Shown: one piece after another, positions 192-365 of the stretch | Layout of the letters: every line of letters begins with the position of its first letter | Position numbering within the stretch: the first letter of the stretch is position 1 | Assembly: GCF_003334335.1 (NCBI RefSeq) | Contig: NZ_QOWQ01000204.1 | Length of the DNA stretch: 365 nt | Origin: Escherichia coli | Lineage (GTDB): Bacteria; Pseudomonadota; Gammaproteobacteria; Enterobacterales; Enterobacteriaceae | Reading direction: 5' to 3' (one strand) | Program-made: the position numbers and the translations under genes | Notes under the pieces: model-generated | The model's input: the letters and a program-made list of their open reading frames with translations, nothing else | Database searches by the model: none | Told to the model about the DNA's origin: nothing

Positions 192-199
192 GGTATTTA

Positions 200-205
200 C
201 CTCTC
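200..205 (-). promoter_or_regulatory. Shine-Dalgarno ribosome-binding site for the CDS starting at 191
   Basis: Plus-strand cctctc at 200..205 is GAGAGG on the minus strand, followed by an 8-nt spacer (TAAATACC) and then ATG. This is a near-consensus purine-rich SD at good spacing. Confidence 0.6.
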
Positions 206-236
206 TGAGTCATGACGATGACACTGACAAATCAGG
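206..236. repeat. Cluster of short palindromes and 6-bp-period TGAC repeats in the 5' leader region; function unknown (candidate operator or leader RNA structure)
   Basis: Plus strand shows TGAGTCA (206..212, 7-bp palindrome), GTCATGAC (209..216, perfect 8-bp palindrome), TGAC at 213-216, 219-222 and 225-228 (6-bp period), and CTGAcaaaTCAG (224..235, inverted repeat). On the mRNA-sense minus strand, GUCAU-CGUC-AUGAC (222..209) can form a 5-bp stem with a 4-nt loop just upstream of the SD. Confidence 0.3.
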
Positions 237-266
237 TGATAAAGCGTAAAAGGCGCAGAATAGCCG

Positions 267-365
267 TTATGCCGGTAACTCCGGGGGTAATGCTTCTTCC
301 AGTCGGTTAACCATATTGCCGAGATGGGATGCATCATATTCCATGACGGGGCGTTGCCTGATGAT
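267..365 (-). CDS. Possible 3' end of an upstream minus-strand gene (5' end beyond the right edge); hypothetical protein
   Basis: The minus-strand frame starting at 365 is open for 32 codons and stops at TAA (269..267). Translation: IIRQRPVMEYDASHLGNMVNRLEEALPPELPA*. Its composition is protein-like (charged, amphipathic). A 32-codon open frame is not statistically compelling on its own, and a second minus frame (197..364) is also open, so this call is ambiguous. Confidence 0.3.
   Translation of the reverse strand: MIRQRPVMEYDASHLGNMVNRLEEALPPELPA

Follow-up and report, generated by a model that had tools for sequence, protein, structure and literature searches.

The 365-nt stretch of Escherichia coli DNA analysed here (the window; all positions are window coordinates unless stated otherwise) carries the start of a minus-strand gene preceded by two overlapping frames on the same strand, one of which stops 5 nt before the start codon, and raises the question of which upstream frame is real and whether translation of the downstream gene is coupled to it. 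The first part has a clear answer: the real frame is that of yeeR, which ends farther upstream. For the whole, we hold with high confidence that 197..365 (minus strand) comprises the 3′ end of yeeR and a non-coding spacer of 75 nt, that the downstream gene, irmA, uses its own Shine–Dalgarno sequence, and that the open frame running into this sequence is accidental. Everything real in the junction region has already been described, and the finding is an ordinary one.

A yeeR–irmA junction on a genomic island

A megablast search matched the window at an identity of at least 95% in about 2,195 of the complete E. coli genomes, which number 5,426, and four genomes among the matches listed were 100% identical to it. 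Copies in complete E. coli genomes amount to about 2,900. Every match is annotated alike, with an IrmA family protein coming after a hypothetical or YeeR family protein, and the annotated gene order of the CP4-44-like island is agn43, yeeR, irmA, DUF905, DUF932, antirestriction, JAB, DUF987, cbeA and cbtA. The window is thus the yeeR–irmA junction on an E. coli genomic island. The initial annotation had pointed to an operon that would include a same-strand upstream gene, and this general idea is right: an agn43-yeeR-irmA operon has been published (PMC4807369). Given that the region is a well-annotated and experimentally studied junction of a virulence-associated operon, the finding matters little, although it has a useful by-product: the published irmA start and four allele-specific promoter bases can be placed precisely on the window sequence. 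The identity of the frames, their conservation and substitution patterns, and the identity of the window to a studied allele come from the present analysis.

The junction was also found on contigs labelled 'Oxalobacter sp. MAG' and 'Novosphingobium sp. BW1' (L009, L013), with YeeR 97–98% identical to that of E. coli; the 'Novosphingobium sp. BW1' contig bearing it is 396 bp long with a coverage of about 0.9. These contigs most likely reflect contamination or mis-binning.

The upstream gene is yeeR

The two upstream frames are the following.

267..365, minus strand: 3′ end of yeeR, that is, its last 32 sense codons (…IIRQRPVMEYDASHLGNMVNRLEEALPPELPA) and TAA at 269..267, the RefSeq CDS end in every fetched copy
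197..337, minus strand: out-of-frame ORF of 46 codons, a chance ORF and not a gene (no Shine–Dalgarno sequence, no coding signature, never annotated)

The initial annotation considered the first of these the more protein-like and noted the 75-nt gap that follows it; both points stand, as the frame is the C-terminus of the 838-amino-acid YeeR, the real upstream gene, and the gap occupies 266..192. Extended rightward, this frame continues without a stop for 743 codons in L001, a genome with an identical window in which an IS21 element has removed the 5′ end of yeeR, and makes up 838 amino acids in the intact copies L002, L008 and L015. The second frame, by contrast, meets a TAA seven codons past the window edge, which limits its open run to 62 codons. 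Stops in both frames had been named as the outcome that would speak against either being coding, and they were encountered in the second frame only.

Codon usage and substitutions likewise separate the two. Against the neighbouring genes, the codon log-odds are positive for the yeeR frame (+0.11 per codon) and negative for the out-of-frame ORF (−0.10 per codon). Among eight E. coli alleles that diverge by ≤5%, from which the counts for both frames were taken, third codon positions account for 12 of the 20 substitutions seen in the final 450 nt of yeeR (binomial p = 0.013), whereas substitutions within the out-of-frame ORF fall at first, second and third positions in a ratio of 1/7/5, which, with the caveat that 13 sites are a small number, shows no coding signature. 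Because of this distribution over codon positions, the substitutions in the ORF are mainly amino-acid-changing.

Sequence searches had also been proposed as a means of deciding, and they returned homologs for YeeR, whereas the exact sequence of the 46-codon ORF is absent from a collection of 15 billion proteins. A scan of one genome per species recovered diverged yeeR homologs in Enterobacter, Serratia and one MAG (62–71% identity over 240–249 amino acids), all three of which keep a C-terminal pattern of IKPLVVS[IV][IV][RK]QRP followed by 26–27 residues and the stop, which lies at the same position in Enterobacter and Serratia and one residue later in the MAG. In each of these homologs, stops interrupt the +1 frame in the stretch corresponding to the out-of-frame ORF. 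None of the three genomes (0/3) was found to have irmA after yeeR, and given that yeeR occurs in other genera without an adjoining irmA, the junction itself is not comparable at depth. Among plasmids, tblastn with the YeeR C-terminus gave no divergent version, only near-identical E. coli and Klebsiella copies.

YeeR matched no family when it was scanned against NCBIfam together with IrmA and the two chance ORFs, and had no significant Pfam match (sub-threshold similarity to glycine-zipper and C19orf12-like domains only, near residues 688–782). Its middle part contains Cys-rich CxxC-type motifs (L002 2234–4750, 838 amino acids). In Serratia and the MAG, long perfect inverted repeats of terminator-like appearance follow the yeeR stop (L011 2254–2330, L012 2251–2350), and unrelated genes on the opposite strand lie downstream of them.

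An open frame that ends on a Shine–Dalgarno sequence by chance

What the initial annotation reported of the second frame is accurate: from 364 on the minus strand it runs for 55 open codons within the window and ends GAG AGG TAA at 205..197, so that its last two sense codons form the Shine–Dalgarno sequence of irmA; between the TAA (199..197) and the irmA ATG (191..189) lie the five nucleotides ATACC (196..192). The quoted translation of 364..197 is likewise as given, with His, Trp, Tyr and Cys making up 27% of its residues as compared with 8.9% in neighbouring genes, and the suspicion that such a composition is atypical of a protein is correct. The first start codon in this frame is ATG 337, 46 codons from the stop, with a further ATG at 334, and the sequence upstream of ATG 337 (CGTCATGGAAT) contains no Shine–Dalgarno sequence. 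No NCBIfam match was obtained for the 46-codon ORF.

Across the roughly 3 kb from yeeR to irmA, open runs of at least 61 codons occur 4 times in one wrong sense frame and 5 times in the other; as long wrong-frame open runs are this common here, the length of the ORF is unremarkable. It is open in the compared E. coli alleles except for two, each with an indel of 1 nt: in L003 a deletion shortens it by about 11 codons, and in STEFF_1 (L004) a T inserted just before GAGAGG (205/206) lengthens the spacer to 76 nt and brings in a TGA that ends the ORF three codons early. Given that these alleles diverge by ≤5%, its staying open among them says little either way. A match in strain 405 has the same length (482 bases) and identity as that of STEFF_1.

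We conclude that the frame ending at the irmA Shine–Dalgarno sequence is a chance open frame and not a gene. It is the +1 frame of the yeeR C-terminus, which happens to continue through the spacer, and it stops simply at the TAA of the A/T-rich segment between the Shine–Dalgarno sequence and the ATG. An alternative-frame ORF that ends on the Shine–Dalgarno sequence of the next gene can, in other words, arise by chance.

irmA and its translation start

On the irmA side of the junction, the window contains the following.

1..191, minus strand: 5′ part of irmA with ATG at 191..189 (RefSeq 'IrmA family protein', WP_000581504.1)
123..191, minus strand: hydrophobic N-terminal segment, irmA residues 1–23, absent from the crystallised mature protein
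200..205, minus strand: irmA Shine–Dalgarno sequence GAGAGG, 8 nt upstream of the ATG, read from the sequence and invariant in 8/8 E. coli alleles
31..213, minus strand: third-frame ORF of 60 codons over the irmA start, from the open reading frame list, considered a chance ORF

IrmA matches PDB 5EK5_A ('IRMA') over residues 24–151 (E = 2.8e-83) and no NCBIfam family in the scan. The Ecol_244 copy of irmA (L007 626–1081) has an internal stop and a pseudogene annotation.

The ATG of the 60-codon ORF (213..211) falls within the mapped 5′ leader of irmA and out of frame with it. This ORF has no Shine–Dalgarno sequence and no NCBIfam match, and the collection of 15 billion proteins does not contain its exact sequence; neither it nor the 46-codon ORF is called in the RefSeq annotation of the ten fetched copies. 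An antisense ORF of 32 amino acids (212..310, plus strand) was also treated as a chance occurrence.

As the 75-nt spacer amounts to 25 codons, yeeR and irmA share a reading frame. A second stop in the yeeR frame, TGA at 212..210, precedes the irmA ATG, and simple stop read-through would therefore not fuse the two proteins.

The spacer and the irmA promoter

Co-transcription, promoter activity and the 5′-RACE start, as discussed below, are taken from the literature. The features placed on the spacer are the following.

192..266, minus strand: yeeR–irmA intergenic spacer of 75 nt with the irmA promoter and 5′ leader, identical to the irmA_2244 spacer of strain 042
244, minus strand: putative counterpart of the mapped irmA +1 in strain 042, deduced from the spacing of the mutagenic oligonucleotide
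247..254, minus strand: GCCTTTTA, counterpart of 'ACCTTTTA', which the authors of PMC9431211 propose as the true −10 (from that paper and alignment with both 042 alleles)
254, 263 and 264, minus strand: allele-specific bases −10, −19 and −20 (alignment with both 042 alleles)

RT-PCR has shown agn43, yeeR and irmA to be co-transcribed in EC958 oxyR, and irmA to be repressed by OxyR (Moriel et al. 2016, mBio, PMC4807369). In strain 042, the yeeR–irmA intergenic region has promoter activity, and 5′ RACE located the irmA start in each of the two alleles (Bernabeu et al. 2022, Microbiol Spectr, PMC9431211). The near silence of irmA_2244, as opposed to the expression of irmA_4509, is explained by four bases at which the alleles differ (+1, −10, −19 and −20). 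Reporter activity from the irmA_2244 spacer was far lower and no protein could be detected as long as irmA_4509 was intact, and irmA_2244 was expressed once irmA_4509 had been deleted (PMC9431211). The −10 predicted by these authors is, by their own remark, badly spaced from the start site (PMC9431211). On the co-transcription of yeeR and irmA the two papers (PMC4807369 and PMC9431211) disagree; the strains differed between them, and an oxyR background was used.

From 365 to 79, the window is identical base for base to irmA_2244 of the EAEC strain 042, and the sole difference between the two is one synonymous base inside irmA (window 78). From irmA_4509 it differs at 303, 264, 263, 254, 244, 231, 209, and 12 inside irmA. 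The mutagenic oligonucleotide of PMC9431211 (ACCGGCATAACGGCTATTCTGCGCCTTTTACGCTTTATCACCTGA) corresponds to window 273..229 and departs from native irmA_4509 at four bases, the spacing of which would put +1 at window 244, −10 at 254 and −19/−20 at 263/264. The position of +1 is thus a deduction from the oligonucleotide and the text of the paper, and the "Int fw" RT-PCR primer of PMC9431211 (window 230..211), which lies inside a transcript starting at 244, is consistent with it. Such a transcript would have a leader of 53 nt, would not include ATG 337 or ATG 334, and contains no ATG, GTG or TTG in the frame of the 46-codon ORF.

Judged by its bases, the window carries the weakly expressed irmA_2244-type variant at all four promoter positions, and we infer that its irmA copy would behave like the identical allele of strain 042. 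To assume use of the promoter in the strain of the window itself would be an extrapolation, as strain 042 hardly expresses the allele.

Among the alleles compared, variability is highest in the spacer, where 75 nt contain 9 substitutions and an indel as opposed to 20 substitutions in 450 nt of yeeR. A terminator scan gave 0 terminator-like sites between yeeR and irmA, which is consistent with read-through. No Rfam match was obtained in the 1.1 kb around the junction (E ≤ 1), a simple sigma-70 consensus scan of L001 7700–8400 gave 0 promoter-like sites, and the predicted fold of the leader and start region (244..170; −10.6 kcal/mol, z = 0.52) is no better than that of shuffled sequences.

Proposed expression of irmA

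We suggest that irmA is translated from its own Shine–Dalgarno sequence (GAGAGG, 205..200) and ATG (191..189), and that its mRNA may come from two sources: read-through of the phase-variable, OxyR/Dam-controlled agn43-yeeR-irmA transcript, and a weak promoter inside the spacer with a 5′ end at window 244. As the yeeR stop lies 75 nt upstream, classical termination–reinitiation coupling of irmA with yeeR is not expected.

In L001 (1–8099), upstream of an identical window, agn43 is separated from yeeR by IS66 and IS21 elements. The agn43-yeeR-irmA operon is thereby disrupted in this genome, and irmA there would depend on the spacer promoter.

Alternative readings

The coupling that the initial annotation read from the geometry of the junction would require the ORF at 337..197 to be a real small gene on the read-through mRNA, the termination of which at the Shine–Dalgarno sequence feeds ribosomes to irmA. 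The ORF does stop 5 nt before the irmA ATG with the Shine–Dalgarno sequence as its last two sense codons, it is open in the compared E. coli alleles bar the indels of L003 and L004, and no terminator separates yeeR from irmA. We nevertheless consider such a gene very improbable, given that ATGs 337 and 334 have no Shine–Dalgarno sequence, that irmA itself possesses a good one, that second codon positions take 7 of the 13 substitutions, that codon log-odds are negative and composition is aberrant, that the ORF is not conserved in distant yeeR homologs, that open runs of this length are common by chance, that it has never been annotated and is missing as an exact sequence from the protein collection, and that the irmA-specific transcript starts at 244, downstream of both ATGs and with no in-frame ATG, GTG or TTG. 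Of four testable features of a coupled upstream gene, the ORF has the geometry only and lacks the other three: its start is not credible, it is not conserved, and the gene-specific mRNA does not include it. Translation of the 46-codon ORF at a low level from the read-through mRNA, boosting irmA when the agn43 promoter is ON, can be given hardly any credence either; if true, irmA would have a coupling ORF that lies within the 3′ end of yeeR and is tied to the phase-variable agn43 promoter. More speculative is frameshifting at the CCCCC run at 287..283, which would yield an extended YeeR ending at the irmA Shine–Dalgarno sequence. In 675SK2 (L003), a 1-nt deletion in this run puts yeeR into the frame of the ORF, and the frameshifted YeeR would end at the TAA that precedes the irmA ATG by 5 nt; yeeR is annotated there as a pseudogene, and the deletion may be a homopolymer sequencing error. 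The reading of the His-, Cys- and Trp-rich frame as a regulatory leader peptide (that is, an attenuation-type uORF controlling irmA) was rejected and deserves the least belief of all: an unusual composition (27% His, Trp, Tyr and Cys) and a position just upstream of irmA are all that speak for it, whereas the frame has no tandem runs of one regulatory amino acid, the scan found no terminator or antiterminator, the fold is unexceptional (z = 0.52), Rfam gave no match, and both ATGs are located within yeeR, before the point at which transcription was mapped to start.

A further reading leaves the chance nature of the ORF untouched and concerns the source of irmA mRNA: the spacer promoter may be effectively dead in this allele, with irmA expressed solely by read-through from agn43 and the spacer serving as an intercistronic linker. 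The window exactly matches the irmA_2244 spacer of strain 042, with its low reporter activity and undetectable protein in the presence of irmA_4509 (PMC9431211), the consensus scan found no promoter, and co-transcription was demonstrated in EC958 oxyR (PMC4807369). Yet a 5′-RACE start was obtained for both alleles and irmA_2244 was expressed upon deletion of irmA_4509 (PMC9431211), and in L001 the IS66 and IS21 elements split agn43 from a truncated yeeR, which makes read-through from agn43 unlikely there. On balance, we regard a dead promoter as somewhat unlikely.

Comparison with known systems

In translationally coupled pairs such as trpE-trpD, the upstream stop overlaps or abuts the downstream Shine–Dalgarno sequence or start codon. 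The junction resembles such pairs in that the out-of-frame ORF terminates between the irmA Shine–Dalgarno sequence and ATG, and differs from them in that this ORF shows no evidence of translation or selection, and in that yeeR, which is the true upstream gene, has its stop 75 nt earlier, a distance too great for classical coupling.

The closest counterpart of the spacer is the irmA_2244 promoter region of EAEC 042 (PMC9431211), to which the window is identical over 365..79, including the four promoter positions, and from which it departs by the one synonymous base in irmA at window 78. At the level of the locus, the L001 copy deviates from the agn43(flu)-yeeR-irmA operon of pathogenic E. coli (PMC4807369) in being interrupted by IS66/IS21 and in having a 5′-truncated yeeR; in gene order, annotation and sequence, the locus of the window is the same as this operon, and nothing of substance differs between the two.
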